Position numbers and translations under genes: made by a program | Source of the DNA: an uncultured Acidobacteriaceae bacterium | GTDB taxonomy: Bacteria; Acidobacteriota; Terriglobia; Terriglobales; Acidobacteriaceae | Reading direction: 5' to 3' | Assembly: GCA_963758135.1 (NCBI GenBank) | Contig: CAVWUF010000002.1 | Span: 110,822 to 174,821, forward strand | Length of the DNA: 64,000 nucleotides | Notes under the pieces: generated by a model | What the model was told of the DNA's origin: nothing | What the model saw: the letters and a program-made list of their open reading frames with translations, nothing else | Databases searched by the model: none | Shown here: in pieces, positions 39,116-62,352 of the stretch | Layout of the letters: every line of letters starts with the position of its first letter | How positions within the stretch are numbered: the first letter of the stretch is position 1

Positions 39116-39229
39116 GGTTGCAATCTCGGCATGAGTGTACCAGTCTGCTTTACCCGCCGGGGCGTGAGGGGCCAGCGAAATTCGAACCGGCTAAATATCC
39201 CCGGCAGTGCCGGGGCCTCCTATGGTTCG

Positions 39230-40252: not shown

Positions 40253-40970
40253 ATACGCTCCGCGCCTGCTCCATTGTTGATATCTTGATCATCGGCTCGC
40301 GCAGGAAGCGCATTAGGTTCTTCTAATAAGTTGTCCGCGCGCCTCCTGCTGCTATGCATCAATATGGGAATCCTATAATCTTCCCTATCGTGGACGGCCC
40401 GCAATCGCGCGCAGGCTATCGCCTCATTTCCCGTCAGTTGCAGTCAGCGCAGATGCTGGCCGCCTCGCCGGTTCGCCTTCCACACACAAGTCTATGTTTT
40501 CGAACCGGCGCTGGATTAGTTCCCTGGGCCTCGAGGCAGTGAATCCAACGATCGGTCGGTTGCGGAAACCCGCGCATTTCTCACTCACGTTCTCCTCCGA
40601 ACGAATGGCTTCCTCAATCCTCTCCCGGACAGAACAAAATCTGCGGCTCTATTCCTGACACCTCACCCCCCGGGGGAGAGGTCGACACTGCCTCAGCCAT
40701 TCGGCCGTGGAAGGGGCTGTGAGAGTCGAGGTTTTGCGCCCCCGCGATGACCTTCCAGGACGAGAGGTGACTCCGTGACCTGTCAGTGGGAGCAGCCTGC
40801 GATTAAGCCCCCCCTCCGTGCACCCGATAGTTCTATTGACAAGCCGCACCAACCCGCAAAATCTCTCTTTTAGCGATGCATCTAAAGGACTTCCTCAAGT
40901 TCCCACGATAACGCTGAAGTAACCACCACCAAAGTACATCTATCCCGTCTCCACAGTGCCTTTTCTGAAG

Positions 40971-41012
40971 CACCAAAGAGTGATTGACGCCTTCTCGCTG
41001 GACCATCAGTAT
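40971..41012 (+). promoter_or_regulatory. candidate promoter of giant gene A: CACCAAAGA-N4-TTGACG-17-CAGTAT
   Basis: -35 TTGACG (40984-40989), 17-nt spacer, -10 CAGTAT (41007-41012), about 140 nt upstream of ATG 41152. The same architecture recurs upstream of genes B and C. Confidence 0.4.
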
Positions 41013-41151
41013 TCAGGCTAGAGTTCCCAGGTACGAAAGTTTATTCAGCGTCTGGATTATCGTGGCCAGCGCCTGGGAAAAGCCAGAAACGTTCGCCCCG
41101 CGAAGACCGGTAGGGCGACACACGTTTCGATTTCCCCCTGAGGTGCTTCTT

Positions 41152-42036
41152 ATGTCTGCCGAACAGTCCCCGGGTTCTTCTCGTCTTTCCCGTTTCCTCG
41201 GGAATGGCCGTTGGCTCGCTCCAATGCTTCTGGTGGCGATGGCAGGCGCCGCGCATGCGACGGACACCTTCACGGTAAACTCGCTTTCGGACGATGCCAG
41301 CGGAGTCGCGGCGAACTGCCCCGCCAACGCCGTCCCCTCCGGGACCTGCACCCTGCGGGATGCCGTTGCCGCAACGAACGCCGACTCGAACCCCAGCACG
41401 ATCCAGTTCTCCGTCTCGGGAACCATCGTTGTCGCGTCCAATATCCTCATTAACAACGCCAGCGCAGCCCTGACCATTACCAATCAATCGGGGACGGGGC
41501 CCATTACGCTTTCCGGCAATAATGCCACCACTGTGTTCGGTTTGTTCCCGGGCACCGTGACTCTCTCCTACCTGACGATTACCAACGGCAACGGCGGTTC
41601 GGGCGACGCTGGCGCCATCTATAACGAGGCTCATCTCACCCTGAACAATGTCGTCCTCGAAAACAACACCACGACGGCCGGATTCGGCGGCGGCGCCATT
41701 TATAACGCCAGCGGCGCGACGCTCACCGCAAATTACTGCGCGTTTTACAACAATTCCGAAGCCAACACCGGAGCCGTCGGCGGCGCCATCGAAAACGCCA
41801 GCGGCGCCAGCATCACCGTGAACGGCAGCACATTTTACGGCAATACCGCGTTTCAGGGCGCCGCTATTGAGAACGACAGCTCCAACGCCGTCACCGTTAC
41901 CAACACGACCTTCGTCAACAATACGGTCATCTACGCTGCCAGCGCGATCTATAACAACGGCCCTGCTCTCAACGTCTACAACAGTACCTTCTGGGAAACA
42001 ACCAGGATAGCATTGCCTACGCCGGCAGTGCCCTGA
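41152..42036 (+). CDS. giant secreted beta-helix protein A, N-terminal part (ends at a frameshift)
   Basis: MSAEQSPGSSRLSRFLGNGRWLAPMLLVAMAGAAHA leader, CTLRDAVAATNA motif, GGAIYN/GGAIEN and FxxN repeats. Colinear with the start of gene B. The frame is lost at the G-run 41993-41995. Confidence 0.8.
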   Translation: MSAEQSPGSSRLSRFLGNGRWLAPMLLVAMAGAAHATDTFTVNSLSDDASGVAANCPANAVPSGTCTLRDAVAATNADSNPSTIQFSVSGTIVVASNILINNASAALTITNQSGTGPITLSGNNATTVFGLFPGTVTLSYLTITNGNGGSGDAGAIYNEAHLTLNNVVLENNTTTAGFGGGAIYNASGATLTANYCAFYNNSEANTGAVGGAIENASGASITVNGSTFYGNTAFQGAAIENDSSNAVTVTNTTFVNNTVIYAASAIYNNGPALNVYNSTFWETTRIALPTPAVP

Positions 42037-42161
42037 ATATCTATAACAGCCTGTTTGACAAGAGCAGTGCATGCGCTTCCGCCGGGCCAGCATGCCCCTC
42101 CACCGGCGATGGACATGGCAACGTCGTAGCGCCCACCAATTCGGTCAGCGGAAGGCCGGCT

Positions 42162-45100
42162 ATGCTGCCTCTTGGCAATTACGGCGGACCTACGCAAACC
42201 ATGCTGCCGATGCCGGGCAGTTCCGCTATCTGCGCGGGCATCTACAGCGATGTCCCCGGCGGCGTGACCACCGACCAGCGCACTTTCCCGATCAAGTCTT
42301 CATGCGTGGACGCGGGCGCGGTGCAATCCAATTACATCGCCGTGACCAGTGGCGCCGACGATGCCACCGGTGTCCCGGCGAACTGCCCTGGGTCTGGATG
42401 CGAGCTTCGCGATGCAGTCTCTTCAGCTAACGCCGCGGGTGACGCCGATATTGATTTCTCCACCGGTGTGAGCACCGTCACGCTCACATCGGCGGGTCCG
42501 GCCACGACTGGCAATGTCAATGTCGTAGGACCAGGTGCGAACTCTCTGACCATCACCGGTCAGAATGAGTACGCCCTTCTCAGCACATCCGGCGGGAGCG
42601 CCTTCCTGTACGGGATGACTTTTGCCAACGGCTCTGCGAGCACTGGCGGCGCCATCTACAACCAGGACGCCCTCACCCTCAGCGGAATGAGCTTTACCGG
42701 CAATACCGCCACCACCGCCGGGGGCGCCATCTACAACCAGAGCGGAACGGTCACGGTCCTCAACAGCAGCTTCACAAACAATACGGCGCCCAATGGCAGC
42801 GCGCTCTACAATCACAGCACCAGTGGCGCGGTCACAGCCGAATACAGCACCTTTGCGAACAATACCGCCGCCACCGCCGCCGCCGTCTACACCGTGGGCG
42901 GCGCCCCTCTTAGCCTGTACAACACCACCCTCTCGGGCAATACCGGCGGCGGCATCGATTTCGCAGGCAGCTCCGCACTGGTCGTGGAGAACAGCATCCT
43001 GGGCGAATCGACCGAGTGCACCGTCTCCGGCGGGGCCGCATGCCCCACCACGGGAACCCTCGGCAACGTCGTAACTCCCACCAACTCGAACACGGGTATG
43101 GCCGCCCTTTCCGCGCCCGGCAGCTACAGCGGGACCAATACGCTCTATTCCACTCAGTCCGTCCTGCCCGAGCCGGGAAGCTCCGCGATCTGCGCCGGTT
43201 CAGCCACGCTGATTCCATCCGGCATTAGTACCGATCAACGCGGTTTCTCGAATGAGAATCTCACCTATACCGGCTATTCCAGCGGCCATCCTTGTGTCGA
43301 CGCTGGCGCCGTCCAGACTAATTACACCTCCGCCCAGTTCGTCGGCACACCTCCTTATGCCGGCACTGCGAATACACCCGGAACGACGCCGCCGGTGATC
43401 GTGTCGGTAACCGAGAACAGTCAGAATGTCGGCGGAGTGCAGGTGCCCCTCACTTTCAGCGGGACCGGCACAGCGACCGGTCTGACCGCCACCACCGTCG
43501 AAGGCACTGGCGCAACCTTCTCCAGCATCAATGTGCCCCAGCCTTCCGGCGGATCGCCTGACACGCTCTCCACCAGCATGACCGTGGTCGGCACCGATAC
43601 ACTCACCGCTGGCCCTGTCAACTTGACGATGGCCGCGGGCACTCCGACTCCCCCCACTATTACCAGCGCCAATAGCGCCACATTCACAACCGGCGCGTCA
43701 GGCACCTTCACCGTGACGGCATCGGGCTATCCCGCGTCTACTTTCAGCGGATCCGGCACTCTGCCCAGCGGCGTTTCGCTGACCACTGCCGGAGTTCTGT
43801 CCGGCACGCCGGCCGCGGGGACCGGCGGCAGCTATCCGATCACCATTACGGCGTCGAACGGAAATACTCCGAATGCCACGCAGAGCTTCACATTAACCGT
43901 CAACCAAACGCCAGCCATCACCAGCGCCAACACCACAAGCTTTGCCGCCGGAACAGCCGGCACCTTCACCGTAACCGCGACTGGCTATCCTGCCCCCACA
44001 TTCACCGAAACCGGCACTCTGCCCAGCGGCGTTACGCTGACCACTGCCGGGGTCCTCTCCGGCACGCCAGCGGCTGGAAGCGGCGGCAGCTATCCGATCA
44101 CCATTACGGCGTCGAACGGAGTTAGCCCCAACGCCACCCAGAGCTTCACCCTCACCGTCAGCCAAACGCCAGCCATCACCAGCGCCAGCACCACAAGCTT
44201 TGCCGCGGGAACCGCGGGGACCTTCACCGTAACCGCGACTGGCTATCCTGCCCCCACCTTCACCGAAACCGGCACTCTGCCCAGCGGCGTTACGCTGACC
44301 GCTGCCGGAGTCCTCTCCGGCACACCGGCGGCTGGAAGCGGCGGCAGCTATCCGATTACCATCACCGCCCAGAACGGAAATACTCCTAACGCAACACAGA
44401 GCTTCACGCTGACTGTGACTCAGCCTCCAGCCTTCACCAGCGCCAGCACCACAAGCTTTGCCGCGGGAACCGCGGGCACCTTCACCGTAACCGCGACTGG
44501 ATATCCCGCGCCCACTTTCACCGAAACCGGCACTCTGCCCAGCGGCGTTACGCTGACCACTGCCGGAGTCCTCTCCGGCACGCCAGCCGCGGGAAGCGGC
44601 GGCAGCTATCCGATCACCATTACGGCGTCGAACGGAGTTAGCCCCAACGCTACGCAGAGCTTCACCCTCGCCGTCAGCCAAACGCCAGCCATCACCAGCG
44701 CCAGCACCACAAGCTTTGCCGCGGGAACCGCGGGCACCTTCACCGTAACCGCGACTGGATACCCCGCGCCCACCTTCACAGAAACCGGCACTCTGCCCAG
44801 CGGCGTTACGCTGACCACTGCCGGAGTCCTCTCCGGCACGCCAGCCGCTGGAAGCGGCGGCAGCTATCCGATCACCATTACGGCGTCGAACGGAAATGCT
44901 CCTAACGCCACCCAGAGCTTTACATTAACCGTCAACCAAACGCCAGTCATCACCAGCGCCAGCACCACAAGCTTTGCGGCGGGAACCGCGGGCACCTTCA
45001 CCGTAACCGCGACTGGATACCCTGCCCCCACTTTCACCGAAACCGGCCCTCTGCCCAGCGGCGTTACGCTGACCACTGCCGGAGTCCTCTCCGGCACCCC

Positions 45101-48100
45101 AGCGGCTGGAAGCGGCGGCAGCTATCCGATCACTATTACGGCCCAGAACGGAAATACTCCTAACGCCACCCAGAGCTTTACATTAACCGTCAACCAAACG
45201 CCAGCCATCACCAGCGCCAGCACCACAAGCTTTGCCGCGGGAACAGCGGGCACCTTTACCGTAACCGCGACTGGCTATCCCGCGCCCACCTTCACCGAAA
45301 CCGGCACTCTGCCCAGCGGCGTTACGCTGACCAGCGGAGGGGTTCTGTCCGGCACCCCGGCGGCTGGAAGCGGCGGCAGCTATCCAGTCACCATCACCGC
45401 GCAGAACGGAAATGCTCCTAACGCAACACAGAGCTTTACATTAACCGTCAACCAAACGCCAGCCATCACCAGCGCCAGCACCACAAGCTTTGCCGCGGGA
45501 ACCGCGGGTACCTTCACCGTAACCGCGACTGGATACCCTGCCCCCACTTTCACCGAAACCGGCCCTCTGCCCAGCGGCGTTACGCTGACCAGTGCCGGAG
45601 TGCTGTCCGGCACCCCAGCGGCTGGAAGCGGCGGCAGCTATCCGATCACTATTACGGCCCAGAACGGAAATACTCCTAACGCAACACAGAGCTTCACGCT
45701 GACTGTGACTCAGCCTCCAGCCATTACCAGCGCCAGTAGCGCCGCCTTCGCTCTGGGAACTGCGGGGACCTTCACAGTTACCGCGACTGGATACCCCGCG
45801 CCCACCTTCACAGAAACCGGCACTCTGCCCAGTGGCGTTACGCTGACCACTGCCGGGGTCCTCTCCGGCACGCCAGCCGCAGGGTCGGCGGGCGCTTACC
45901 CGATCACCATCACCGCGCAGAACGGAAACACCCCTAACGCCACCCAGAGCTTTACATTAACCGTCAACCAAACGCCAGCCATCACCAGCGCCAGCACCAC
46001 AAGCTTTGCCGCGGGAACAGCGGGCACCTTCACCGTAACCGCGACTGGCTATCCTGCCCCCACCTTCACCGAAACCGGCACTCTGCCCAGCGGCGTTACG
46101 CTGACCACTGCCGGAGTCCTGTCCGGCACACCGGCGGCTGGAAGCGGCGGCAGCTATCCGATCACCATTACGGCGTCGAACGGAGTTAGCCCCAACGCTA
46201 CGCAGAGCTTCACCCTCACCGTCAGCCAAACGCCAGCCATCACCAGCGCCAGCACCACAAGCTTTGCCGCGGGAACCGCAGGCACCTTCACCGTGACCGC
46301 GACTGGATACCCCGCGCCCACCTTCACCGAAACCGGCCCTCTGCCCAGCGGCGTTACGCTGACCACTGCCGGAGTCCTCTCCGGCACGCCAGCCGCTGGA
46401 ACCGGCGGCAGCTATCCGATCACTATTACGGCCCAGAACGGAAATACTCCCAACGCAACACAGAGCTTTACATTAACCGTCAGCCAAACGCCAGCCATCA
46501 CCAGCGCCAGCACCACAAGCTTTGCCGCCGGAACCGCAGGCACCTTCACCGTAACCGCGACTGGCTATCCTGCCCCCACCTTCACCGAAACCGGCCCTCT
46601 GCCCAGCGGCGTTACGCTTACCACTGCCGGAGTCCTCTCCGGCACGCCAGCCGCGGGAAGCGGCGGCAGCTATCCGATCACCATTACGGCGTCGAACGGA
46701 AATACTCCTAACGCCACCCAGAGCTTCACGCTGACTGTGACTCAGCCTCCAGCCATTACCAGCGCCAGTAGCGCCGCTTTCGCTCTGGGAACTGCGGGCA
46801 CCTTCACAGTTACGGCGACTGGATACCCCGCGCCCACCTTCACCGAAACCGGCACTCTGCCCAGCGGCGTTACACTGACCACGGCCGGAGTCCTCTCCGG
46901 CACGCCAGCCGCGGGGTCGGGCGGTACGTACCCCATCACTATCACAGCGCAGAATGGCTCTAGTCCCAACGCCACACAGTCCTTCACACTAACTATCGGC
47001 TCGCCGACGCCGATCGTTCCCTACATCCAGGATGTGCAAGCCAACAGCGGAGCCTGGCAAGGAGTATCGAATCTCTCCGTGACCTACGGCGACACGGTGA
47101 ACATCGGTCCGCAGCCGGCGAGCGGCGGTTCCTGGAGCTGGACCGGTCCCAATGGCTTCACAGCTACTTCGCGGGAAATTGACCACATTGCGCTGCCGTC
47201 GGCCACCAATGTCTACACCGCCACTTACACCAATTCCATCGGTCTTACGAGCACACAGGTTTTCACCATCACGATCAGCCCCACGCCGATCGTTCCCTAT
47301 GTCCAGGATCTCCAGCAGAACGGTGGAGCGTTCCAGCAAGTCTCCACCCTCGCCGCGAATTATGGCGACACGGTGAACATCGGCCCGCAGCCGGCGAGCG
47401 GCGGTTCCTGGAGCTGGACCGGCCCCAATGGCTTCACAGCCAGCACGCGCGCCATCTCCGGCATTGCCCTGCCTTCGCCCTCCAATGTTTACACCGCAAC
47501 CTACACCAACCCCGCCGGAGCGACCAGCACCCAGGCCTTTACCATCACCGTCAACCCCACCCCGATTGTTCCCTACATCGAGGTGAACGGAGGAGCCTGG
47601 CAGAGCGTTGCCAGTGTCACGGTCAATGCAGGCAGCACGGTCAACCTCGGCCCGGCGCAACAGAACGGCGGTTCCTGGAGCTGGACCGGTCCTAACGGCT
47701 TTACTTCCACCTCGCGGGAGCTCGACGCCATTGCCCTGCCTGCGGCCACCAATGTCTACACCGCCACTTACACCAATCCCGCCGGAGCGACCAGCACCCA
47801 GACGTTTACCATTTCCTTCGCATCGACACCTATCGTTCCTTATATCCAGGATCTCCAGCAGAACGGCGGAGCGTTCCAGCAAGTCTCCACCCTCGCGGCG
47901 AATTATGGCGACACCGTGAACATCGGCCCGCAGCCGGCGAGCGGCGGTTCCTGGAGCTGGACCGGTCCCAATGGCTTCACAGCCAGCACGCGCGCCATCT
48001 CCGGCATTGCCCTGCCTTCGCCCTCCAATGTCTACACCGCCACTTACACCAACCCGCAGGGAGCCACGAGCACGCAGGCCTTTACCATCACCGTCAACCC

Positions 48101-50006: not shown

Positions 50007-50032
50007 ACGGCCACGTCACCGAAAGATTTGTT

Positions 50033-50063
50033 ACCTTTTGCACGCCGCGGGCTTGCAAAAGGT
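50033..50063 (+). terminator. hairpin after gene A (no U-tract)
   Basis: Perfect 10-bp stem accttttgca (50033-50042) / tgcaaaaggt (50054-50063), starting 27 nt after the stop codon. No T-run follows. Confidence 0.3.
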
Positions 50064-50137
50064 GACGCGGCGGAGCTTAACATTCGCAACTACAACCAAA
50101 GTGCGCTGCGGATGTCTCTACAGTCTTCTGACGGATG

Positions 50138-50179
50138 CACCAAAGATTCGTTGACTTCGCCCCGCTTGACCATCAGTAT
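50138..50179 (+). promoter_or_regulatory. candidate promoter of giant gene B: CACCAAAGA-N4-TTGACT-17-CAGTAT
   Basis: -35 at 50151-50156, -10 at 50174-50179, about 141 nt upstream of ATG 50320. The block gaccatcagtattca is identical to the one upstream of gene A. Confidence 0.4.
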
Positions 50180-50319
50180 TCAACCAGCGGTTCCTGTGAT
50201 CGAAGTGTAGTCAGCGGCTGGTTTCTCTTTGCCAGCGCACAGTGACAATCTGGGAAACGGTCGCCCGGCAAGAACCAAGGGCGGAAACGTTTCGATAATC
50301 CCCTGAGGAGTCTCTCTTT

Positions 50320-53300
50320 ATGTCTGCTGAACTATCCCTGGGTTCTTCTCGCAACTCCCGCTTTGTTTCCCGGCTCATCGGGAATGGCCGTTGGCTCGCT
50401 GCCCTGCTGCTGCTCGCGGTGGCAGGGGCTGCGCACGCTGCGGACACCTTCACGGTGAACTCCCTCAATGACGATGCGAGTGGCGTCGCGGCGAACTGCC
50501 CGGCTAACGCCGTCCCCACAGGGACATGCACCCTGCGCGATGCCATCGCTGCGGCGAACGCCGATGCGAATGCGAGCACGATCCAGTTCTCCGTGTCAGG
50601 GACCATCGTGGTGTCTTCGACTCTCACGGTCAATAACTCCAAAGTAGCCGTGACCATCAGCAATCAGTCAGGCTCGGGGGCCATTGCGATTTCAGGCAAT
50701 AACGCTCAGCAGGTCCTCGGTGTGCTTCCCGGCACAGCGACGTTTTCCTACATCACGATCGAAAACGGGAATGGAGGCTCGACGACTGCCGGCGGTATCT
50801 ACAACGAAGGCAATCTAACCCTCAGCAACGTCGTTCTCCAAAACAACACCACCACAGCCGGGATCGGAGGCGGGGGTGTCTATAACAAAAGCGGCGCGAC
50901 GCTCACCGTGGCATACAGCTCGTTTTACGGCAATTCCGACACAAAAACCGGCACAACGGGCGGCGCGATCGAAAATGCCAGCGGCGCTACGCTCAGCGTG
51001 AGCGGGAGCACGTTTTACGGCAACTCCTCTTATCAGGGCGGCGCCATTGAAAACGACAGCGCTAATGCGCTCACCATTACCAACAGCACCTTCGACGGCA
51101 ATACTGCATCGTACCAGGCCAGTGCAATTTACAGCGGCAACGGCGCAGCTCTCAACATCTACGACAGCACGTTCTATGGAAACAACAAAACCGGGATCGC
51201 CTACGGCGGTTCCAGCCAGCTGAATGTTTACAACAGCCTTTTTGACGCAAGCGGGGAGTGCGGCACTGCCGCCCCGGCGGCTTGCCCCACCAATGGCACC
51301 AAGGGCAACATCGTGGCGCCCACCAATTCGGTTTCCGGCAGGCCGGCCGTGTTACCGCTCGGCAATTACGGCGGCCCAACTCAGACCCTGATGCCGATGC
51401 CGGGGAGCTCCGCCATCTGCGCGGGGCTGTCAGCCGATGTTCCGAACGGCGTAACCATTGACCAGCGCACCTTCCCGTTCAATAGCGCCTGTGTGGATGC
51501 CGGTGCGGTTCAAACCAATTACATCACCGTCACCACGGGCAGCGATCATACCGCTAGCGCGGCTAACTGCCCCGGTTCCAACTGTGCATTTCGCGATGCG
51601 GTCGCGGCAGCCAACGCCGCGTTCAACGGCGACATCGCCTTCGCGAACACAGTATCGACTGTCACCCTTACGGCGGAAGGTCCCACCAACCTTTACAACA
51701 CCAATATCATCGGACCTGGGGCCAGTTCTCTCGCCGTCAACGGACAGGGCACCAATGTGCTCTATGGCTCATTCGGCGGAAACGTCTTCATGTACGGAAT
51801 GACCTTTGAGAACGGCTATAACAGCAGCGACCAAACCGGTGGCGCCATTTATAACCAGACGAACCTCACCGTGAGCAATATGGTTTTCACGGGCAACGTT
51901 GCGTTAGCCGCCGGCGGAGCGATCTATACCAAGCAGGGCAGTCTCACGGTTCTCAACAGCAGCTTTATAAACAATACGGCCCCCCAGGGAAGCGCTCTTT
52001 ACAACAACACCACGAACGGCCCGCTCGTCGCTGAATACAGCACCTTTGCCAACAACGACGCTACCACCAACGAAGGCGGCGCCATCTTCTCCGCCTACGG
52101 CGCCCCGATGAGCCTCTACAACACGACGCTCTCCGGCAATATCAACACCGGCATTATCTTCGCCGGCAGCGGTGCCCTGGTGGTGGAGAACAGCGTCCTG
52201 GACAGCAGCGCTGAGTGCATCGCCGACAGCCCCGCCGCTTGCCCGACCACGGGTACCCTCGGCAACGTCGTGGGCCCCACCAACTCTAACGCCGGAGTGG
52301 CGCCCCTCTCCGCGCCCGGCAATTACAGCGGGACCAATTCACAGTACTCTACTCAATCCGTCCTGCCCGAGCCCGGAAGCTCCGCAATCTGCGCCGGTTC
52401 CTCGACTTTGATTCCAGCCGGGGTCACAACCGATCAGCGCGGCTTTTCGAACGAGAACATCACCTACACAGGCTATTCGGCCAGTAAGATTTGCGTCGAC
52501 GCCGGCGCCGTCCAGACCAACTACACCTCTGCCCAGTTTGTCGGGGCCCCTTATACCGGCACTTCAAATACACCAGGGGCAACACCGGCCGTGATCGCAT
52601 CGGTTACTGAGAACGGTCAGAATGTCGGCGGAGTCCAGATACCTCTTACCTTCAGCGGAGCCGGAACAGCATCGGGAACAACGGCGACCACGGTCGAAGG
52701 CACCGGCGCAACCTTCTCCAGCATCGAGGTGAATCAACCCAGCGGCTCTTCGCCTGACACCCTCTCGATCAGTCTTCCTGTCGTCGGAACCGACAAGCTC
52801 GCCGCCGGACCGGTCAACTGGACAGTGTCCTCGCAAATTGTTCCCTATATCCGGGATCTCCAGGCGAACGGGGGAGCGTGGGAGAATGCCTCCACTCTCA
52901 CGGTGAACTATGGTGACACCGTTGACATCGGCCCGCAACCGGCAACTGGCGGTTCGTGGAGCTGGACCGGTCCCAATGGGTTTACCTCCACTTCGCGGGA
53001 AATCGACGGCATTTCGGTGGCTTCGGCCTCGAACGTTTACACGGCAACTTACACCGATCCGGGTGGCGTCAAGAGCACGCTCGCATTCACAATCACGGTC
53101 GGCCCCACCACCATCGTTCCTTATATCCAGGATGTCCAGGAGGACGGAGGGGCCTATCAGCAGGTCGCCGGCATCACAGCGGCTTACACCGACACGGTAA
53201 ACCTTGGACCCCAACCCCAGACTGGCGGCTCCTGGAGCTGGACCGGTCCCAATGGGTTCACCTCCACTTCCCGGCAGCTCAACGCCGTTGGGTTGCCTTC

Positions 53301-54201
53301 ACCCACAAATACCTACACCGCCACCTACACCAATCCGGCCGGCGTCAAGAGCTCGATGGCACTGACGATTACCGTCAGCCCCACAGCCATCGTTCCCTAT
53401 ATCCAGGATCTGCAGCTGAACGGGGGGGCCTATCAGCAGGTTTCCACCCTCTCGGTCAATTACGGCGACACCGTGAATCTTGGCCCGCAACCCGAGAGCG
53501 GCGGTTCGTGGAGCTGGACTGGTCCTAATAACTTCACCGCCAACACGCGGCAAATCAGCAATATCCCCCTCACTTCGGCCTCGAATGTCTACACCGCAAC
53601 TTACACCAATCCGGCTGGAGTTACGAGCACTCAGCAATTCACCATCACCATAAACCCCACCACGATCGTTCCCTACATCCAGGATGTGCAGGCCAACAGC
53701 GGAGCCTGGCAGAATGTCGCCACTCTTACGGTGAACTATGGCGACACGGTGAACATCGGCCCCCAACCCGTCAACGGTGGTTCGTGGAGCTGGACTGGCC
53801 CCAATAACTTCACCGCCAACACACGGCAAATCAGCAGTGTCCCGCTCAATTCAACCTCAAATGTCTTCACGGCGACTTACACTAATCCAGCGGGAGTCAC
53901 GAGCACACAGCAATTTACCATCACCGTCGGTCCAACCCCGATTGTTCCCTATATCGAGGTGAACGGCGGAGCCTGGCAGAATGTCGCCACCGTAACCGTC
54001 GCCTCCGGCAGCACGGTGAACATCGGTCCCCAACCCCTGAACGGTGGCACCTGGAGCTGGACCGGTCCCAATAACTTCTCGGCCCATACCCGCGAAATCG
54101 ACAGCATCCCGCTCAGCGGAGGCTCCAATGTCTTCACTGCAACTTATACCAATCCGGCCGGGACCGCGAGTACCCAGCAATTCACCATCACGGTTCAGTA
54201 A
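50320..54201 (+). CDS. giant secreted beta-helix protein B (1293 aa)
   Basis: Same leader and two CxLRDA + GGAI/FxxN beta-helix modules as A, then 5 GGSWSWTGPNGF/GPNNF repeats. No He_PIG-like repeats. Confidence 0.85.
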   Translation: MSAELSLGSSRNSRFVSRLIGNGRWLAALLLLAVAGAAHAADTFTVNSLNDDASGVAANCPANAVPTGTCTLRDAIAAANADANASTIQFSVSGTIVVSSTLTVNNSKVAVTISNQSGSGAIAISGNNAQQVLGVLPGTATFSYITIENGNGGSTTAGGIYNEGNLTLSNVVLQNNTTTAGIGGGGVYNKSGATLTVAYSSFYGNSDTKTGTTGGAIENASGATLSVSGSTFYGNSSYQGGAIENDSANALTITNSTFDGNTASYQASAIYSGNGAALNIYDSTFYGNNKTGIAYGGSSQLNVYNSLFDASGECGTAAPAACPTNGTKGNIVAPTNSVSGRPAVLPLGNYGGPTQTLMPMPGSSAICAGLSADVPNGVTIDQRTFPFNSACVDAGAVQTNYITVTTGSDHTASAANCPGSNCAFRDAVAAANAAFNGDIAFANTVSTVTLTAEGPTNLYNTNIIGPGASSLAVNGQGTNVLYGSFGGNVFMYGMTFENGYNSSDQTGGAIYNQTNLTVSNMVFTGNVALAAGGAIYTKQGSLTVLNSSFINNTAPQGSALYNNTTNGPLVAEYSTFANNDATTNEGGAIFSAYGAPMSLYNTTLSGNINTGIIFAGSGALVVENSVLDSSAECIADSPAACPTTGTLGNVVGPTNSNAGVAPLSAPGNYSGTNSQYSTQSVLPEPGSSAICAGSSTLIPAGVTTDQRGFSNENITYTGYSASKICVDAGAVQTNYTSAQFVGAPYTGTSNTPGATPAVIASVTENGQNVGGVQIPLTFSGAGTASGTTATTVEGTGATFSSIEVNQPSGSSPDTLSISLPVVGTDKLAAGPVNWTVSSQIVPYIRDLQANGGAWENASTLTVNYGDTVDIGPQPATGGSWSWTGPNGFTSTSREIDGISVASASNVYTATYTDPGGVKSTLAFTITVGPTTIVPYIQDVQEDGGAYQQVAGITAAYTDTVNLGPQPQTGGSWSWTGPNGFTSTSRQLNAVGLPSPTNTYTATYTNPAGVKSSMALTITVSPTAIVPYIQDLQLNGGAYQQVSTLSVNYGDTVNLGPQPESGGSWSWTGPNNFTANTRQISNIPLTSASNVYTATYTNPAGVTSTQQFTITINPTTIVPYIQDVQANSGAWQNVATLTVNYGDTVNIGPQPVNGGSWSWTGPNNFTANTRQISSVPLNSTSNVFTATYTNPAGVTSTQQFTITVGPTPIVPYIEVNGGAWQNVATVTVASGSTVNIGPQPLNGGTWSWTGPNNFSAHTREIDSIPLSGGSNVFTATYTNPAGTASTQQFTITVQ
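52831..54198 (+). repeat. 5 in-frame tandem ~91-aa GGSWSWTGPN(G/N)F repeats in gene B
   Basis: Units begin QIVPYIRDLQ, TIVPYIQDVQ, AIVPYIQDLQ, TIVPYIQDVQ, PIVPYIEVNGG. They are more diverged from each other than those in gene A. Confidence 0.85.
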
Positions 54202-54232
54202 CCCCTTTTCTTTCTCCTGAGAGTATGCCCCC

Positions 54233-54266
54233 GGCGGCTATTGCGGCTTAAGCTGCGATAGCCGCC
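54233..54266 (+). terminator. imperfect 17-bp palindrome/hairpin after gene B (no U-tract)
   Basis: ggcggctattgcggctt / aagctgcgatagccgcc with 2 mismatches, starting 32 nt after the stop codon. Confidence 0.3.
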
Positions 54267-54688
54267 AGTGCACTCTACAAAACCACTTCCATCCAAACGA
54301 ACTTGGCGAGCCGCTCCCATGCCGCGCCTCTTTAGCGCCCACGCCAGCGCCAATGAAACACGGTTCCGCCATGCTTCCATCCTTGGTACCACCAGGAATG
54401 CCTTACATCGACCTCAATCGAGTGTCGTCCTGCACACCTGCACATTCCCATCCAAGCTGACCTTCTGTCGAACTGGCGCATATCGGACCTGTCCGCGTGA
54501 CTCCGAAGGTAATCCAGCGTCGGAAACATCCCTCCCTTCTGCAGCCGAAGGTTTTCTTCACGAGTTGATGCAAACTGAATTCTCCCTCTACGCGAAGCAA
54601 GCAAAAGACTTCGACAGTTCTTATTCCCACTCTGCGGTAACTCCCACCAAAGTGCTTACCGGGCGAGTCCGCAGTCCCCTTCCCGCGC

Positions 54689-54731
54689 AACCAAAGATCG
54701 GTTGACGTAAAGCACCTCTCCCCATGACTAT
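54689..54731 (+). promoter_or_regulatory. candidate promoter of giant gene C: AACCAAAGA-N4-TTGACG-18-GACTAT
   Basis: -35 at 54702-54707, -10 at 54726-54731, about 129 nt upstream of ATG 54860. The ACCAAAGA block sits 13 nt upstream of TTGAC, as for genes A and B. Confidence 0.35.
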
Positions 54732-54859
54732 CAACAGAGTAGTCCCGTTGAATTTGCAGTTAACAACCGGGTCCCTCTCCCAGCGCACGGGAACAGAACG
54801 AAACCGTCACCTGCGCGTTTACCGGTGGCGAAATATAAAGATCTTCTGAGGTGCTTTCG

Positions 54860-57800
54860 ATGCCTGCCAAATCGTCCCTGGATTCTGCGCGCCGCTTCTC
54901 GCCATCGCGCCTGTTCTCTCTGTTCATCGTCTCTTGCGTGTGGCTCGTCCCCATGTTGCTGCTCGGCACCGCCGCCAGCGCGATGGCTGCGGACACCTAT
55001 ACGGTGACCGTGCTTACCGACGACTATGCTGGAGGCGGCAATCTGAACGGCACCACCTCCAACTGTCCGGCCAACGGCCTCGGTAGCAACTGCTCTCTGC
55101 GCGACGCTATGACCGCGGCCAATGCTGACCCGGGAAGCAGCGTCATATTTCGTTCGGGGCTTTCAGGGCGCATTCCCGTGGGCTTTGTGCTTCCTGAGAT
55201 TGTCGTGAACATGACCGTCGATGGGGGCTCAGCGATTATCCTCGACGGCCTGAACGGAACCACACCATTCGCGGTGTATAACGCTCCGTCCGCCACGCCG
55301 ATCAACGTCACCATCCAAAACTTCACCCTGCAGAACGGCAACGGCCAGAGTCTGGCCGCAACCGGTGGCATCCAGAACCAGTATGCCAACCTCACCGTGA
55401 ATAACGTCGCCTTCCTGAACGTCACAGCCGGCAGTTCCGGATTCGGCGGCGCCATTTATAACAATGGAACTCTGACCGTCAACAACTCCTTTTTCTTCAA
55501 CTGCACTGCCAATAACGGCGGCGCTATTTACAACGATACCGGCGGCAACCTGACCGTCAACGGCAGCACCTTCAACAAGCTCTACGCCACGCAGTCCGCC
55601 AGCATCTTCCAGTACAGCACCACGCTGCTGGTTGTTACCAACAGCACTTTCACCGGAAATTCCGCCATTTATGGCGCCGGCATTTACAGCATTAACAACG
55701 CCAACCTCACCGTGAAAGACAGCACGTTCTTCGGCAACACGGCGGAAGACGGCGGCGGCGTCTCCTATACCGGCGACCCCACAAAACCAACAGTGGTCAC
55801 GCTCGAAAACAACTACTTTGCGGAAAACAACGAGTGCTATGCCGATCCCGGTGCGCCGATCTGCCCAACCAATGGCCAGTACGGGAACTACGTAGGGCCC
55901 AGCTCCTCGACGACCCTGGCTGCAGCCGGCCTGCTGCCGCTCAGCTACTATGGCGGCCTCACCCCGACCATGCTGCCCATGCCGGGTAGCCCGGGGATCT
56001 GCGCCGGCATTGCCGCCGATGTCCCCACCGGAGTCACCAAAGACCAGCGCGGCTTCCCGCTCAAAACTTCGTGCGTCGACGCCGGCGCGGTTCAGACTAA
56101 CTATCTCACTGTGAGCAAGGCCGGCGATGATGCCACCGGTATTGCTGCTAACTGCCCTGGTTCATCGTGCGGCTTGCGCGACGCCATCGCATATGCAAAT
56201 GCCGCGGGCTACGGCGACATCGATTTCGCGAACGGCTTAGCCAGCATCGCGCTTACCTCGGCCGGTCCCTCCGTGGGCCCCAGCGTAAATATCGTCGGCC
56301 CCGGCGCGGGTTCACTCACCGTCTCCGGCGCTAACCAATACCCAATCCTCGAGACCTCCGGTGGAAGCGCGTCCGTGTTCGGGATGACTTTCGCCAACGG
56401 CAATAACACCGCGAACGGCACCGGCGGCGCTATCGACAATCTGGCGAACCTCACCGTGAACGGGATGTACTTTACCGGAAACTCCGCGGCTACCTCCGGC
56501 GGCGCCATCTACAACGACGGCTCCGGGTCGGTTACTGTTATCGACAGCACCTTCGCCAACAACACGGCCCCCGACGGCAGCGCAATCTACGACAACAGCG
56601 CGACGGGTGGCCTGCTGATGAAATACAGCACCATCGCGAACAACACTGCTTCCGCCGACGGCGCTATCTACAGCGGCAGCGGCGCAGCGGTCAACGTCTA
56701 TAACAGCACCCTGGCCGGCAACACCGGCGGCGGCATCGTTATCGGCGGCGGTTCTACTCTGACGGTGGAAAACAGCATCCTGGGCGAGAGCACAGAGTGC
56801 TCCGGCTCAACCTCCTGCCCCGCCACAGGGACTCTGGGCAACGTCGTCGCCCCAACCAATCTCACCAGCGGCATTCCGGCCCTCTCCGCGCTTGGCTATT
56901 ACAGCGGCACGAGTGCTCTGTTCTCCACGCCAACCATTCTTCCCGAACCGGGCAGCTCAGCCATCTGCGCAGCCTCTGCCACGTTGATTCCTTCCGGCAT
57001 CAACACCGACCAGCGCGGCTTCCTTAACGAGAACTACACCTACCCCGGCTATCCGTACACCGCCCCCTGCTACGACGCGGGCGCCGTACAGACGGATTAC
57101 ACGTCGGCGCAGTTTGTCGGCGCTCCTTATTCCGCTGCTGCGAACTCTAACGGAGCAACTCCGCCCGTGATCGTTTCGGTCACAGAAAACGGCCAGAACG
57201 TTGGCGGAGTGACCGTACCGCTGAGCTTCACTGGAACCGGAACCGCCACCGGCCTGACGGCAACCACCGTCGAAGGCACGGGCGCCACCTTCTCCAGCCT
57301 CAATGTCAACCAGGCCAGCGGCGCCTTGCCTGACACTCTCTCCACCAGCATTCCGGTTATCGGCACCTTTGCCCTGACCGCCGGTCCGGCCAGCCTGACT
57401 GTGCAAGCGCAGGTCGTTACCTGGCCGGCACCGTCAGCAATAACCTATGGCACCGCACTCAGCGCAACTCAGCTGGATGCGACATCCACCGTGAACGGCT
57501 CCTTCTCTTACTCTCCGGCCGCCGGCACGGTTCTTACCGCTGGGACTCACATCCTCGTTGCGACCTTCACACCATCCAACGGAAGCCTGGGAACACTCAC
57601 CAACACGGTGACGATAACCGTTAACAAGGCGACTCCCGTCATCACGTGGGCGGCTCCGGCGGCTATCACCTCCGGTACCGCGCTCAGTTCCACCCAGCTG
57701 GATGCGACCGCCAGCGTAGGTACCGCCAACGTAGCCGGGACCTTTGCTTACTCCCCGGCTGCAGGCACCATCCCCTCTGTCGGAACAGATACGCTGTCGG

Positions 57801-59962
57801 TCACCTTCACTCCCACCGACACCACCGACTACAACACGGCAACCGCCTCCGTCAGCCTCGTGGTCAACCAGGGCGCGGCGCCAACCATCACCTGGCCAAC
57901 ACCGTCGGCAATCACCTACGGTACTGCACTCAGCGCAACCCAGCTGGATGCTACCGCCAGTGTTAATGGCAGCTTCTCTTACTCTCCGATGGCCGGCACG
58001 CTTCTCACCGCTGGGTCGCACGTCATTACTGCCACCTTCACACCATCCAACGCGAGCCTGGGCACAGTCACCACCACTGTAACCATAACCGTGAACAAGG
58101 TGACACCCGTCATCACGTGGGCGGCTCCGGCGGCTATCACCTCCGGTACCGCGCTCAGCTCCACCCAGCTGGATGCGACCGCAAGCGTAGGCACCGCCAG
58201 CGTAGCCGGTACCTTTGCTTACACCCCGGCTGCAGGCACCATCCCATCCGCCGGAACAGACACTCTGTCGGTGACTTTCACTCCCACCGACACCACCGAC
58301 TACAACACGGCAACCGCCTCTGTCAGCCTCGTGGTCAATCAAAGTGGTTCGACGCCGACCATCACGTGGCCGACCCCGGCGGCAATCACCTACGGCACCG
58401 CACTCAGCGCAACCCAGCTGGATGCGACCGCAAGCGTTTCAGGCACCTTCACTTACTCTCCGGCCGCAGGCACCGTGCTGAAGGCTGGGTCGCAGACTTT
58501 ATCCGCGACCTTTAAGCCGAGCAGCTCCAGCCTGAGCTCGGTCACCACCACCGTCACGCTGACCGTTAACCAGGCGAATCCGGTTATCACCTGGACGAAT
58601 CCTCCGAACATTGTCTACGGCACACCGATCACCACTGCCGAGCAGAACGCAACCGCCAACGTCCCGGGCAGCTACGTCTACACTGCTCCGCTCGGAACCG
58701 TCTACACGGCAGGTGTGCATCCCCTCGGCGTCGCGTTCTTCCCGACCGACCAGGTAGACTACGCCGATGTTTCGGGCTACGCCTACGTCACCGTCACCAA
58801 AGCTACTCCGGTCATCAGCTGGGCAACACCGGCTGCGATCCTCTACGGCACCACGCTCAGCTCTACCCAGCTGAACGCCACCGCCAACGTTGCAGGAACC
58901 TTCGCCTACTCCCCGGCTGCCGGTACCGTGCCGGCCGTTGGTACTGACACTCTGACGGTCACCTTCACGCCCAGCGACACCACAGACTACAACGCGACGA
59001 GCGCCGCCGTACTGCTGACGGTGGCCTCGCCTGCAACTCCAATCGTTCCTTACATTCAGGTGAACGGCGGAGCCTGGCAGAACATCTCCAGTGTCACGGT
59101 CGCCGCCGGCAGCACAGTCAATCTTGGACCTCAACCCTCAACCGGTGGTTCGTGGAGCTGGACTGGCACCGCTGGTTTCACCTCGACTTCACGCCAGATC
59201 ACCAGCATTCCGCTGCTCTCCGGCGTCAACACCTACGTCGCAACCTACACCAATACCTCTGGTGTAACCACCACCCAGACCTTCACCATCACCGTTACCG
59301 GCTGGCAGCAGATCGGCACCAGCGTGAGCAACATGTCAGTTGGTTCCGACGGCACACTGGTGGTGGTCAACTCGTCAGCATCGACAATCTGGGAGTTCAC
59401 AGCGGCGACAGGCGCCTGGACGCAGCTGCCCGGTACCGCCAAAGAGGTTGCCGTCGTCAACGCCAATAGCATCTGGTCAATCGGCACCAACCGCAATGTC
59501 TATCACCTCGTCAGCGGGGCATGGGTTCAGGTCGGCGTCAGTGCCGACGCGATCGCCGCCGGCTCCGATGGAACGGTCATCGCCGCCGATTACCCCAACC
59601 AGACCATCTGGAAGTATGTGTCCGGCTCTAACTGGACCCAGGTTCCCTTTGGCCTCTCGTCCCAGGTGTCGGTCGTCAGGAACAATGACTACTTCATCCT
59701 CGGCAACGGTCCCGGATACTGGCTGTGGAATTACAACGGAAGCGCCTGGTCCGCTGTTGGACAATCAGCCTACAGCTGGGTCTCCTCCGCCTCCGACGGG
59801 ACAGTCATCACCACCACCAGCGCCGGTAACATCTACCAGTACGTATCGCACGGCAACTTCACCCAGATAACCGGAACCATGAAAGAAGTGGTTGTGCAAA
59901 AAGCCGGCGCCTATTACGCCATCGGAGAAGACGGCAACGTCTACGGTTACGGCACTCACTAA
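54860..59962 (+). CDS. giant secreted beta-helix protein C (1700 aa) with MBG-like repeats and a C-terminal tectonin-like beta-propeller
   Basis: Leader MPAKSSLDSARRFSPSRLF ... LLGTAASAMA (alternative GTG at 54851). CSLRDAMTAANA and CGLRDAIAYANA modules with GGAIYN repeats. Then 7 ITYGTALSATQLDAT-type repeats, one GGSWSWTG unit and six W-x-Q-[IV/LP]-G blades. Confidence 0.85.
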   Translation: MPAKSSLDSARRFSPSRLFSLFIVSCVWLVPMLLLGTAASAMAADTYTVTVLTDDYAGGGNLNGTTSNCPANGLGSNCSLRDAMTAANADPGSSVIFRSGLSGRIPVGFVLPEIVVNMTVDGGSAIILDGLNGTTPFAVYNAPSATPINVTIQNFTLQNGNGQSLAATGGIQNQYANLTVNNVAFLNVTAGSSGFGGAIYNNGTLTVNNSFFFNCTANNGGAIYNDTGGNLTVNGSTFNKLYATQSASIFQYSTTLLVVTNSTFTGNSAIYGAGIYSINNANLTVKDSTFFGNTAEDGGGVSYTGDPTKPTVVTLENNYFAENNECYADPGAPICPTNGQYGNYVGPSSSTTLAAAGLLPLSYYGGLTPTMLPMPGSPGICAGIAADVPTGVTKDQRGFPLKTSCVDAGAVQTNYLTVSKAGDDATGIAANCPGSSCGLRDAIAYANAAGYGDIDFANGLASIALTSAGPSVGPSVNIVGPGAGSLTVSGANQYPILETSGGSASVFGMTFANGNNTANGTGGAIDNLANLTVNGMYFTGNSAATSGGAIYNDGSGSVTVIDSTFANNTAPDGSAIYDNSATGGLLMKYSTIANNTASADGAIYSGSGAAVNVYNSTLAGNTGGGIVIGGGSTLTVENSILGESTECSGSTSCPATGTLGNVVAPTNLTSGIPALSALGYYSGTSALFSTPTILPEPGSSAICAASATLIPSGINTDQRGFLNENYTYPGYPYTAPCYDAGAVQTDYTSAQFVGAPYSAAANSNGATPPVIVSVTENGQNVGGVTVPLSFTGTGTATGLTATTVEGTGATFSSLNVNQASGALPDTLSTSIPVIGTFALTAGPASLTVQAQVVTWPAPSAITYGTALSATQLDATSTVNGSFSYSPAAGTVLTAGTHILVATFTPSNGSLGTLTNTVTITVNKATPVITWAAPAAITSGTALSSTQLDATASVGTANVAGTFAYSPAAGTIPSVGTDTLSVTFTPTDTTDYNTATASVSLVVNQGAAPTITWPTPSAITYGTALSATQLDATASVNGSFSYSPMAGTLLTAGSHVITATFTPSNASLGTVTTTVTITVNKVTPVITWAAPAAITSGTALSSTQLDATASVGTASVAGTFAYTPAAGTIPSAGTDTLSVTFTPTDTTDYNTATASVSLVVNQSGSTPTITWPTPAAITYGTALSATQLDATASVSGTFTYSPAAGTVLKAGSQTLSATFKPSSSSLSSVTTTVTLTVNQANPVITWTNPPNIVYGTPITTAEQNATANVPGSYVYTAPLGTVYTAGVHPLGVAFFPTDQVDYADVSGYAYVTVTKATPVISWATPAAILYGTTLSSTQLNATANVAGTFAYSPAAGTVPAVGTDTLTVTFTPSDTTDYNATSAAVLLTVASPATPIVPYIQVNGGAWQNISSVTVAAGSTVNLGPQPSTGGSWSWTGTAGFTSTSRQITSIPLLSGVNTYVATYTNTSGVTTTQTFTITVTGWQQIGTSVSNMSVGSDGTLVVVNSSASTIWEFTAATGAWTQLPGTAKEVAVVNANSIWSIGTNRNVYHLVSGAWVQVGVSADAIAAGSDGTVIAADYPNQTIWKYVSGSNWTQVPFGLSSQVSVVRNNDYFILGNGPGYWLWNYNGSAWSAVGQSAYSWVSSASDGTVITTTSAGNIYQYVSHGNFTQITGTMKEVVVQKAGAYYAIGEDGNVYGYGTH
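57413..59026 (+). repeat. 7 in-frame tandem ~74-83-aa MBG-like (YG-type Ig-like) repeats, with a 471-bp two-unit higher-order repeat
   Basis: Unit pattern: P(V/T)ITW..P.AIT(Y/S)GTALS.TQLDATA.V.G(S/T)F.YSPAAGT ... FTP(S/T) ... V.L.VN. Units 1+2 are repeated as units 3+4; the off-frame track ORFs 57646.. and 58117.. have matching translations. Confidence 0.8.
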
Positions 59963-60022: not shown

Positions 60023-60055
60023 AGGGGCGAGCTTCCATGCTCGCCCCTCTTTTTT
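60023..60055 (+). terminator. rho-independent terminator after gene C
   Basis: Perfect 10-bp stem aggggcgagc (60023-60032) / gctcgcccct (60039-60048), 6-nt loop, then cTTTTTT. Confidence 0.8.
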
Positions 60056-60267
60056 GCACTCGGTCGAACGCTGCAAGCCCACCCCCAAAAGCATCATCAC
60101 CCTCTACTACTCAGGTAACCAAATCAGGGACACCGCCTCCCTGAAAGTGGGATACCACCGGCATCCCCACCTCCCTATAGTCCGAGTTAGATTCGCACTC
60201 CGGAAAGCACTGAAGCCTGCTGGGCTTCTCCGCTCTCCTGGGTACGGTGATCGTGGTGCCTCCCGTT

Positions 60268-60984: not shown

Positions 60985-61028
60985 CCAACGTTAACCCGCA
61001 CTGCAACGTAAGATCGTGGGTTCGAAAA

Positions 61029-61063
61029 AGCGTCTGCCAAACAGCAGGCGCTTTCTGTTTTTT
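61029..61063 (+). terminator. rho-independent terminator after the Big_2 gene
   Basis: Stem agcgtctgc (61029-61037) / gcaggcgct (61044-61052) with one G-U pair and a 6-nt loop, followed by ttctgtttttt. Confidence 0.65.
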
Positions 61064-61164
61064 GCCCGAATCCCCCCCTCTGGTCCCGATAGCCCCTTCC
61101 CCAGCCCAGAAGCCCCGGGCTTTGTCCATTCCACTTTGGTGGGCGAAATCCCCCCAGGTATCAA

Positions 61165-62241: not shown

Positions 62242-62352
62242 CCGGCAGCGGCGGTTCGGAGCCCCGCCTTCCTTTCTGCTGACCCTCCACTTGGCCTCCG
62301 CTCCCGCGCGCGGCATATACTGTCCCCTGCTGTTTCGCCGCAGGAGAAATGG

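Follow-up and report, generated by a model that had tools for sequence, protein, structure and literature searches.

A tandem trio of giant CSLREA/choice-of-anchor-Q genes with a common double beta-helix core and variable C-terminal domains in an uncultured Acidobacteriaceae bacterium

Locus layout, shared core and C-terminal arrays

The analysis covered a 64,000-nt stretch of DNA of an uncultured soil Acidobacteriaceae bacterium (contig CAVWUF010000002.1 of assembly GCA_963758135.1), referred to below as the window. Three neighbouring genes, A, B and C (the trio), were found on its + strand, where they occupy 18.8 kb in total, or 29% of the window (Table 1). Gene A is split in the window into two open reading frames (ORFs; 41152-42036 and 42162-50006), and the restoration of one G resulted in a single ORF of 2951 aa. 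As far as their sequences tell, the three genes are old paralogues.

Table 1. Features of the A-B-C locus; positions are those of the window unless marked as residues (Ig, immunoglobulin)
Feature	Position	Strand	Remark
Upstream box of A, ACCAAAGA-N4-TTGAC (-35-like)	40972..40988	+	180 nt before the ATG; conserved leader next
Gene A	41152..50006	+	2951 aa with one G restored at 41990-41993; ORF listing and translation
Gene A, putative signal peptide	aa 1-36		ends in AHA; read from the sequence
Gene A, core (two beta-helix modules and Ig)	41152-43661	+	
Gene A, frameshift site	41990..41993	+	TGGG in the window; TGGGG in the L003, L004 and L005 orthologues and in L079
Gene A, He_PIG array	43662..47012	+	13 Ig-like units (86 aa, 258 nt; DNA identity 69-97%)
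Gene A, 11 GGSWSWTGPNGF (GGSWSW) modules	47013..50003	+	PKD/Ig-like
Hairpin 3' of A	50030..50066	+	24 nt past the stop; 17-nt arms, 88% complementary
Upstream box of B, ACCAAAGA-N4-TTGAC	50139..50155	+	
Gene B	50320..54201	+	1293 aa
Gene B, core	50320-52836	+	pLDDT 88 for the core model
Gene B, five GGSWSW modules	52837-54198	+	
Hairpin 3' of B	54233..54266	+	32 nt past the stop; 17-nt arms, 88% complementary
Upstream box of C, ACCAAAGA-N4-TTGAC	54690..54706	+	
Gene C	54860..59962	+	1700 aa; ORF start GTG 54851
Gene C, core	54860-57409	+	
Gene C, seven ASH/HYDIN-type Ig modules	57416-59041	+	
Gene C, one GGSWSW module	59042-59311	+	
Gene C, tectonin propeller, six-bladed	59312-59959	+	blades counted by reading the sequence
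Intrinsic terminator 3' of C, canonical	60023..60048	+	perfect 10-bp stem followed by a run of T

The first 900 aa of the three proteins were colinear in BLASTP alignments (E = 0), with identities of 67, 53 and 49% for the A-B, A-C and B-C pairs, respectively. The similarity fell off at about residue 835, beyond which the sequences were unrelated. The core was found to consist of a leader, then two successive modules in which a PMP-like right-handed beta-helix lies between a CSLREA cap in front and a choice-of-anchor-Q cap, rich in Cys, behind, and finally an intimin-like Ig domain. The leaders of A, B and C have an N-terminal hydrophobic stretch terminating in A-x-A, and from this feature, read from the sequence by eye, export of all three proteins by the Sec route would be expected. 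The motifs CxLRDA and DAGAVQ were each counted twice in every protein, and six conserved Cys were counted per beta-helix module. Because each module has these six cysteines, an oxidised, disulfide-bonded extracytoplasmic state is probable.

Profile searches were performed against Pfam and NCBIfam. The choice_anch_Q profile (NF041518, cut-off 25) scored 50.5, 50.1 and 44.6 bits in A, B and C, with two matching stretches in A, two in B and one in C. The CSLREA_Nterm profile (TIGR04214) was at its cut-off of 25 in B (25.1 bits) and below it in C (23.4 bits) and A (19.1 bits). Beta_helix profile matches were recorded for A and B, Chlam_PMP exceeded its cut-off of 20.6 only in B (25.3 bits), and POMP_repeat reached 16.3-16.5 bits in A, B and C (cut-off 15).

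The core was modelled with AlphaFold using residues 1-835 of B and 51 homologues in the alignment. In the resulting model (pLDDT, the per-residue confidence score, 88.4; pTM, the predicted template-modelling score, 0.85) two beta-helix modules, each with a helical cap at its N-terminal end and a Cys-rich one at its C-terminal end, are followed by the Ig domain. The top matches to this model in the Protein Data Bank (PDB) were the crystal structures 9CDV and 9CDU of RbtA from Acinetobacter baumannii, with an E value of 3e-7, template-modelling (TM) scores of 0.51-0.54 and 19-20% identity. At the sequence level, too, no PDB entry other than RbtA matched the beta-helix core significantly (family profile-to-sequence E 7e-10). 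Polysaccharide lyases of families PL6 and PL9, VexL and phage tailspikes were ranked below RbtA in the fold search, and the core Ig domain matched intimin D00-D0. RbtA resembles the trio in that a CSLREA cap stands at the N-terminus, ahead of a right-handed beta-helix with coils of the GGxIxN type; however, it consists of one helix module in 617 aa, whereas the proteins of the trio have two modules each, carry 450-2100 aa of Ig/lectin domains and lack a sorting signal. The RbtA equivalog profile (TIGR04212) gave only 27 bits for the trio against a cut-off of 295 bits, and the C-termini of the trio are Ig or tectonin domains without GlyGly-CTERM. Judged by sequence and model comparison, the relation of the trio to RbtA is one of distant homology and fold similarity only.

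Behind the core, motif counts gave 13 He_PIG and 11 GGSWSW modules in A, five GGSWSW modules in B, and seven ITW-type Ig modules, one GGSWSW module and a tectonin domain in C; A and B of the window thus terminate in plain Ig modules without a propeller. Tandem Repeats Finder detected arrays whose periods are 258, 276 and 471 nt, and gene A contains an 819-nt higher-order repeat whose two copies (47832-48650 and 48651-49469) are 98.2% identical. The He_PIG profile (PF05345, cut-off 24) scored 144 bits across the first six units of A, the 13 units being recognised by motif. Tectonin (PF19193, cut-off 30) scored 53.3 bits from residues 1528-1605 of C onward, where six blade-like repeats were seen by eye. 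The seven Ig modules of C matched Ig_CFAP65_4th, HYDIN_VesB and ASH. No MBG_2 match (PF18676, cut-off 25) was obtained at E <= 1 for the two C modules that were assayed, when the positive control, a relative's locus (L007), reached 63.5 bits.

The GGSWSW module scored 52 bits on Ig_2 when summed over B and 21.6 bits as a single module (cut-off 27). Its model, built from the 17 copies of the window (pLDDT 92), matched PKD, Y_Y_Y and GhpA Ig-like domains with TM scores of 0.58-0.70 at Foldseek E values of 1e-3 or higher; for the GhpA domains, the identity was 24-26% and the TM score 0.61-0.67. By this model, the module would be an Ig/PKD-like sandwich. At the search sensitivity used, it was nearly confined to Acidobacteriota: the hits of the database search were for the most part short fragments from acidobacteria, next to a few weak Ig_2/PF19081 or type IX secretion system (T9SS)-tail (PF18962) proteins, with no informative catalytic partner.

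The first-pass annotation of this DNA had already described the trio, and much of that description was reproduced. The ORFs, coordinates and ~29% share of the window agreed with ORF listing and translation, and the module counts were recovered exactly. Pairwise alignment, a Pfam/NCBIfam profile search and structure prediction, which it had proposed, were carried out. The alignment returned the colinear N-terminal core, put there at ~830 aa, and the unrelated back ends; beta-helix, Ig and propeller profiles were all matched, in support of the labels CSLREA (profile cut-off reached in B only), choice-of-anchor-Q, PMP-like beta-helix, He_PIG and tectonin; and the predictions gave a confident double beta-helix with Ig for the core and a PKD/Ig-like sandwich for a C-terminal module. 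The modules of C that it had termed MBG-like were reassigned to the ASH/HYDIN type of Ig.

Relatives, back-end variation and flanking candidate control elements

At least 679 homologous proteins were found in a search with the core at E <= 1e-5. Those that are named, from Acidobacteriaceae, Silvibacterium and other Acidobacteriota metagenome-assembled genomes (MAGs), bear the label 'CSLREA domain-containing' or 'choice-of-anchor Q domain-containing', and a genome scan added Terracidiphilus, Bryobacterales, Granulicella and Tunturiibacter. Members of the family are present, for example, in the cultured relatives Tunturiibacter gelidiferens M8UP28 (L055) and Granulicella sp. L60 (L069). The precomputed C-terminal Pfam domains of the homologues were diverse (Big_3_5, MBG_2, He_PIG, PF18998, TIG, fn3, FG-GAP, Tectonin and ASH-type Ig), and 19 of the 78 loci had more than one separate core-like match, representing tandem genes or multi-helix-module proteins. 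The trio's own family is that of the NCBIfam choice-of-anchor Q/CSLREA proteins of Acidobacteriaceae, which includes homologues of 40-90% identity, many with a two-module core and Ig-type domains, and which is known by annotation labels alone. The 24-domain He_PIG and GGSWSW array, the ASH-Ig and tectonin combination and the tandem arrangement are specific to the lineage of the trio. The family is common and recognised by databases, and modular back-end variation is usual among giant surface proteins. The result refines an annotation and presents no new kind of system; it adds a connection to RbtA, the record of replaced back ends and of an inversion among near relatives, and a conserved candidate promoter with its leader.

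Other surface proteins were similar in part. Chlamydial Pmp proteins share with the trio the GGA(I/L/V) and FxxN repeat coils and form multi-paralogue surface families; however, they are autotransporters with a C-terminal beta-barrel, where the trio has Ig/lectin domains, and neither an autotransporter barrel nor PMP_M (PMP middle domain) was hit in A, B or C at E <= 0.01. The GhpA grappling hook of Aureispira and the intimin/invasin stalks have comparable long Ig/PKD-like arrays, but differ in their heads, secretion routes (T9SS and type V secretion) and anchors, so that the likeness is limited to the domain fold.

The variation of the back ends was observed directly by comparing the locus among relatives, a check that the first-pass annotation had recommended for its suggestion of cassette gain, loss and swapping. 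The corresponding locus was found in MAG MFD04780.bin.1.17 (L003). There, the A orthologue is a 1591-aa protein in which the core is followed by five He_PIG units, an NP-repeat linker and an FG-GAP propeller, and the gene is inverted (4516-9291, - strand), diverging from B. The B orthologue has one He_PIG unit and an FG-GAP propeller behind the core, replacing the five GGSWSW modules. C and the genes downstream are colinear with the window at 95% nucleotide identity, and the architecture of C is unchanged. It was also noted that the DNA past the 3' end of A in L003 is unlike that of the window, which marks a rearrangement breakpoint at the locus. In two other MAGs (L001, L002, L004 and L005) GGSWSW arrays are present on both A-like and B-like genes, and a C-like gene of a further locus (L006) terminates in Big_3_5 domains, replacing GGSWSW and tectonin. 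Over the window and three relatives, A and B have one back-end type per genome, and this type varies across genomes.

The synonymous divergence between the window and L003 was 0.43 for the A core, 0.65 for the B core, 0.15 for C and 0.25 for the downstream Big_2 gene, the values of A and B being 3-4 times that of the neighbouring C. As the synonymous divergence of A and B exceeds that of C, the A-B part of the locus would have a separate, deeper history, which fits block exchange or allelic replacement. The ratio of nonsynonymous to synonymous divergence (dN/dS) was 0.09-0.20 throughout. Thus, the family described earlier as 'diversifying' is so with respect to domain replacement and copy number, but its codons are under purifying selection. 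Positive selection was rejected, dN/dS being 0.02-0.27 in all 140-codon blocks. Recent gene conversion between the paralogue cores, considered as a handle for swapping, was also rejected (no 150-nt window above 83% nucleotide identity), and so was within-genome homogenisation of the back ends, those of A and B (70-74%) being about as diverged as the cores (67-69%). We proposed that the repeat number would shift through recombination among units of 86-98% identity, that entire C-terminal domain sets would be swapped at or past the boundary behind the core Ig, and that the codons would meanwhile be kept under purifying selection.

A fourth paralogue of ~2700 aa with He_PIG, MBG_2 and Big_3_5 domains was observed in relatives (L007, 9773-17863; L009, 9950-17863). 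It has the same core and ends in a C-terminal invert_tail (NF058595; 54 bits, cut-off 37), a putative anchoring domain that comprises a hydrophobic segment, a basic cluster and a lipobox-like LSGC. The conserved upstream box described next is absent from this gene.

The ~240 nt preceding A, B and C are homologous to one another. Exactly three copies of ACCAAAGA-N4-TTGAC were found in the window, each 165-180 nt before the ATG, when none was expected by chance. In most of the 16 matching loci (L001-L006, L008, L010-L015, L017, L018 and L023) the box, which is strictly conserved, lies ~177 nt upstream of family genes, with distances of up to ~235 nt in L017 and L023, and it also precedes family genes whose protein identity is only 40-44%. 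This promoter-like box before each gene and before distant homologues is new here. A second ACCAAAG copy is located ~47 nt further upstream of the box, and CAGTAT, GACTAT or TAAGGT follows 17-18 nt after TTGAC. The box could be an activator site combined with a regulatory 5' untranslated region.

Most leaders contain a GC-rich hairpin ~25-65 nt before the ATG, with a stem sequence that varies between groups and z-scores of 0 to -3.4 in single-sequence folds, which is suggestive of a leader RNA structure. RNAalifold gave weak structure with one compensatory pair for five leaders and no consensus for 18 leaders, among which two sequence groups were misaligned by MAFFT. No Rfam match was obtained in the whole window at the gathering threshold, and a permissive scan of 40300-41200 returned just a spurious long non-coding RNA hit. 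The first-pass annotation had given each gene its own promoter-like element and a trailing hairpin; a conserved TTGAC box and a hairpin were indeed present at each, and a generic sigma-70 scan detected no + strand promoter, the terminator after C being its only find. Because a box precedes and a hairpin or terminator follows each gene, A, B and C look like separate transcription units that share a control element.

Function, polarity and competing explanations

It was proposed, with a probability of about 0.6, that the trio encodes fibrous proteins which are exported, disulfide-bonded and probably not enzymes, and which act as long adhesive fibres of the surface or matrix. They would form adhesive or matrix-binding fibres of tens of nm, either on the cell surface or in the matrix of extracellular polymeric substances (EPS) and cellulose. 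Tectonin and FG-GAP propellers are typically ligand-binding modules and were counted in favour of adhesion. RbtA has been described as a cell-surface protein (PMC12643943), and a CSLREA protein was reported in the secretome of A. baumannii that relies on the secretion system of type II (T2SS; bioRxiv 10.1101/2022.02.01.478765). By analogy with the Acinetobacter protein, A, B and C would cross the outer membrane via a system encoded elsewhere, most plausibly a T2SS; we infer this passage, as we do the adhesive or matrix-fibre role.

Several observations weigh against the adhesive-fibre proposal. No C-terminal sorting or anchor signal (PEP-CTERM, LPXTG, T9SS C-terminal domain, GlyGly-CTERM and others) was found in A, B or C at E <= 0.01. 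Likewise, profile hits on the neighbouring genes revealed no type I secretion system, TpsB, autotransporter barrel, T9SS or T2SS genes beside the trio, in agreement with the first-pass annotation, which had seen no secretion partner nearby. The fold search also returned polysaccharide lyases (PL6, PL9 and VexL), and a conserved D-Q-R ... D-A-G-A-V-Q element occurs in each cap. In each genome the back ends of A and B are about as diverged as their cores, and more than one order and timing of the replacements would be compatible with the data. Finally, adhesion, localisation and secretion in the acidobacterial family are predictions only.

Giant exported proteins of Acidobacteria have been proposed since the first genomes, without evidence, as a basis of biofilm formation and soil aggregation (PMC4885859). 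The present locus is an assembly-verified example with a confident core model and a solved distant relative, RbtA, and its close relatives with the same core and different back ends represent a natural experiment. Function is thereby made testable with respect to which end binds what, the export route and control. Few groups of bacteria are as abundant in soil as the Acidobacteria.

The polarity of such fibres was considered separately. The description 'common stalk, variable tip' may have to be reversed, with the C-terminus cell-proximal: the double beta-helix would be the distal head, the Ig domains the stalk, and the variable C-terminus, a tectonin or FG-GAP propeller or the terminal Ig modules, would bind the cell's own lipopolysaccharide, EPS or cellulose non-covalently, substituting for a sorting signal. 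This arrangement, which we regard as possible but held only tentatively, is favoured by the paralogue of L007 and L009, which has the same core and ends in a putative anchor, and by the beta-helix core being the conserved part under the strongest constraint. The NCBIfam definitions point the same way: the choice-of-anchor-Q domain is defined by its position ahead of C-terminal anchors of alternative types, and RbtA is said to carry a GlyGly-CTERM/rhombosortase anchor at its C-terminus. With distal beta-helices, for which RbtA and the paralogue with the putative anchor speak, the tectonin and FG-GAP propellers might serve for non-covalent anchoring and not as outward tips. However, lectin propellers and Ig arrays that vary from one close relative to the next classically mark an outward specificity end, binding of the own surface by tectonin or FG-GAP modules is a conjecture, and A and B of the window end in plain Ig modules without a propeller.

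A further, rather doubtful suggestion was that the trio belongs to a co-regulated repertoire of surface fibres, in which the conserved box and a structured leader of ~130-150 nt (a length that assumes a transcription start just after the box) would control many paralogues, and the lectin-type C-terminal propellers would be exchangeable non-covalent anchors or specificity heads, traded in blocks among lineages.

It was considered unlikely that A, B and C are secreted polysaccharide-active enzymes, in which a beta-helix lyase, hydrolase or epimerase would be joined to an Ig/lectin tail of carbohydrate-binding modules. Acidobacteriaceae are polysaccharide degraders, and the fold matched two-domain PL6 alginate lyases, PL9 Pel9A, VexL, rhamnogalacturonan lyase and tailspike depolymerases. 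However, these matches were weak (TM ~0.2 for PL6; 0.53 with E 1e-3 for Pel9A) and ranked under RbtA, and no lyase or hydrolase family was matched in Pfam or NCBIfam. In the comparison of 51 core sequences, in which N, S, T, G or A accounted for ~60% of residues, conserved charged residues were located in the caps only (D51, R73, D381, R383, D393, D409, R425, D426, D438, D705, R707 and D727). Not a single conserved Asp, Glu, Lys, Arg or His was found in the helix coils (residues 95-310 and 450-630), and hence, at the sequence level, no PL1/PL6/PL9 signature, i.e. a Ca-binding acidic cluster with a Lys/Arg base on the helix face. Since the conserved charges are confined to the caps, the sequence comparison speaks against the helix face bearing a conserved active site of the lyase type; a function of the caps is compatible with it.

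The frameshift of gene A was examined against an independent European Nucleotide Archive assembly. Contig_50224 of ERZ25039472 (78.8 kb; L079), located by exact-protein look-up of B, was colinear with the window over 40322-64000; in these 23.7 kb the identity was 99.93%, and 14 mismatches and two indels were counted. Its A-B-C layout is identical and its gene A is intact. At the break in A, the window reads TTCTGGGAAAC, where TTCTGGGGAAAC or TTCTGGGGGAAC stands in the orthologues of three other genomes. The two indels are each a one-base loss from a homopolymer of the window, one in a non-coding C run at 40808 and the other in the G run at 41993 (G4 to G3). The frameshift is therefore most likely a homopolymer sequencing error; the first-pass annotation had seen the break and the ~2950 aa of the repaired protein correctly, but it is probably no real feature of the gene. 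Because the only indels relative to L079 were homopolymer losses, the window assembly is likely to contain homopolymer errors of the long-read kind, and caution is advisable with any other frameshift that it seems to show. In a separate observation, 12 of the 14 mismatches fell inside gene C (56584-59850), seven of them in repeated Ig modules, and none in A or B; this cluster stems either from strain-level variation that is concentrated in C or from polishing noise where the DNA is repeated.

The same G tract could be taken for a contingency locus, in which slippage toggles A and recombination of the tandem copies creates surface variants within a population. The G3/G4 difference between two assemblies of 99.93% identity lies right at the frameshift, the direct-repeat cores would permit deletion or duplication, and A is inverted in one relative. 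Phase variation of this kind was nevertheless judged very improbable. The tract is just 3-4 nt long, and known slippage tracts are far longer; the sole other indel between the assemblies is also in a homopolymer and non-coding, as long-read error predicts; and the paralogue cores, with at most 83% nucleotide identity per 150-nt window, show no evident recent exchange. That the trio is an assembly artefact or a decaying pseudogene cluster, as highly repetitive DNA with one frameshift might imply, has a negligible chance of being correct, since the trio was reproduced in the independent assembly (the artefact check named by the first-pass annotation) with so few differences and A intact, the repeats are mutually different (86-98% identity) and thus resolved, not collapsed, and orthologues exist in four other genomes with dN/dS of 0.1-0.2.

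Genomic surroundings

The context of the trio is that of an acidobacterial chromosome, with bcs genes, DUF3857-transglutaminase paralogues, a CsgG-like gene, KdpD and icd/mdh. Genes for MgtE and an REC-PAS regulator are located immediately upstream of A. Adjoining C downstream, a small lipoprotein with the lipobox FAGTGC and two Big_2 domains is encoded at 60247-60984, a position kept in L003 and L079. The unknown ORFs further downstream (60991-63903) and an intergenic ORF (54268-54705) gave no Pfam or NCBIfam matches.

The GC skew flips at ~39100-39400: over 4-38 kb it is about +0.2, whatever strand the genes are on, and from 39.4 kb onward it lies near -0.15 to -0.2. The flip would fit a replication terminus with converging forks just upstream of the trio. 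A search near it for a dif site of the E. coli type found none. At the left edge of the window (69-2285) an nSTAND1 NTPase with tetratricopeptide repeats (TPR) is encoded, where the local GC skew is unlike that of the next 34 kb.

The bcs genes form a cellulose synthase operon (4161-15102) 26 kb upstream of the trio, which encodes a BcsQ-like ATPase, a 1536-aa BcsA-BcsB fusion with PilZ and a 1588-aa TPR-rich BcsC. Directly past bcsC, three tandem paralogues of ~680-714 aa with a DUF3857 and transglutaminase-like core were observed (15204-21459), followed by a gene for a CsgG-like lipoprotein with an FlgT_C domain (21529-23073, - strand). LarE-, LarC- and LarB-like genes, associated with maturation of the nickel-pincer cofactor of lactate racemase, were recognised at 28909-31935 by a weak NAD_synthase-like match and by Ni_insertion and AIRC hits.

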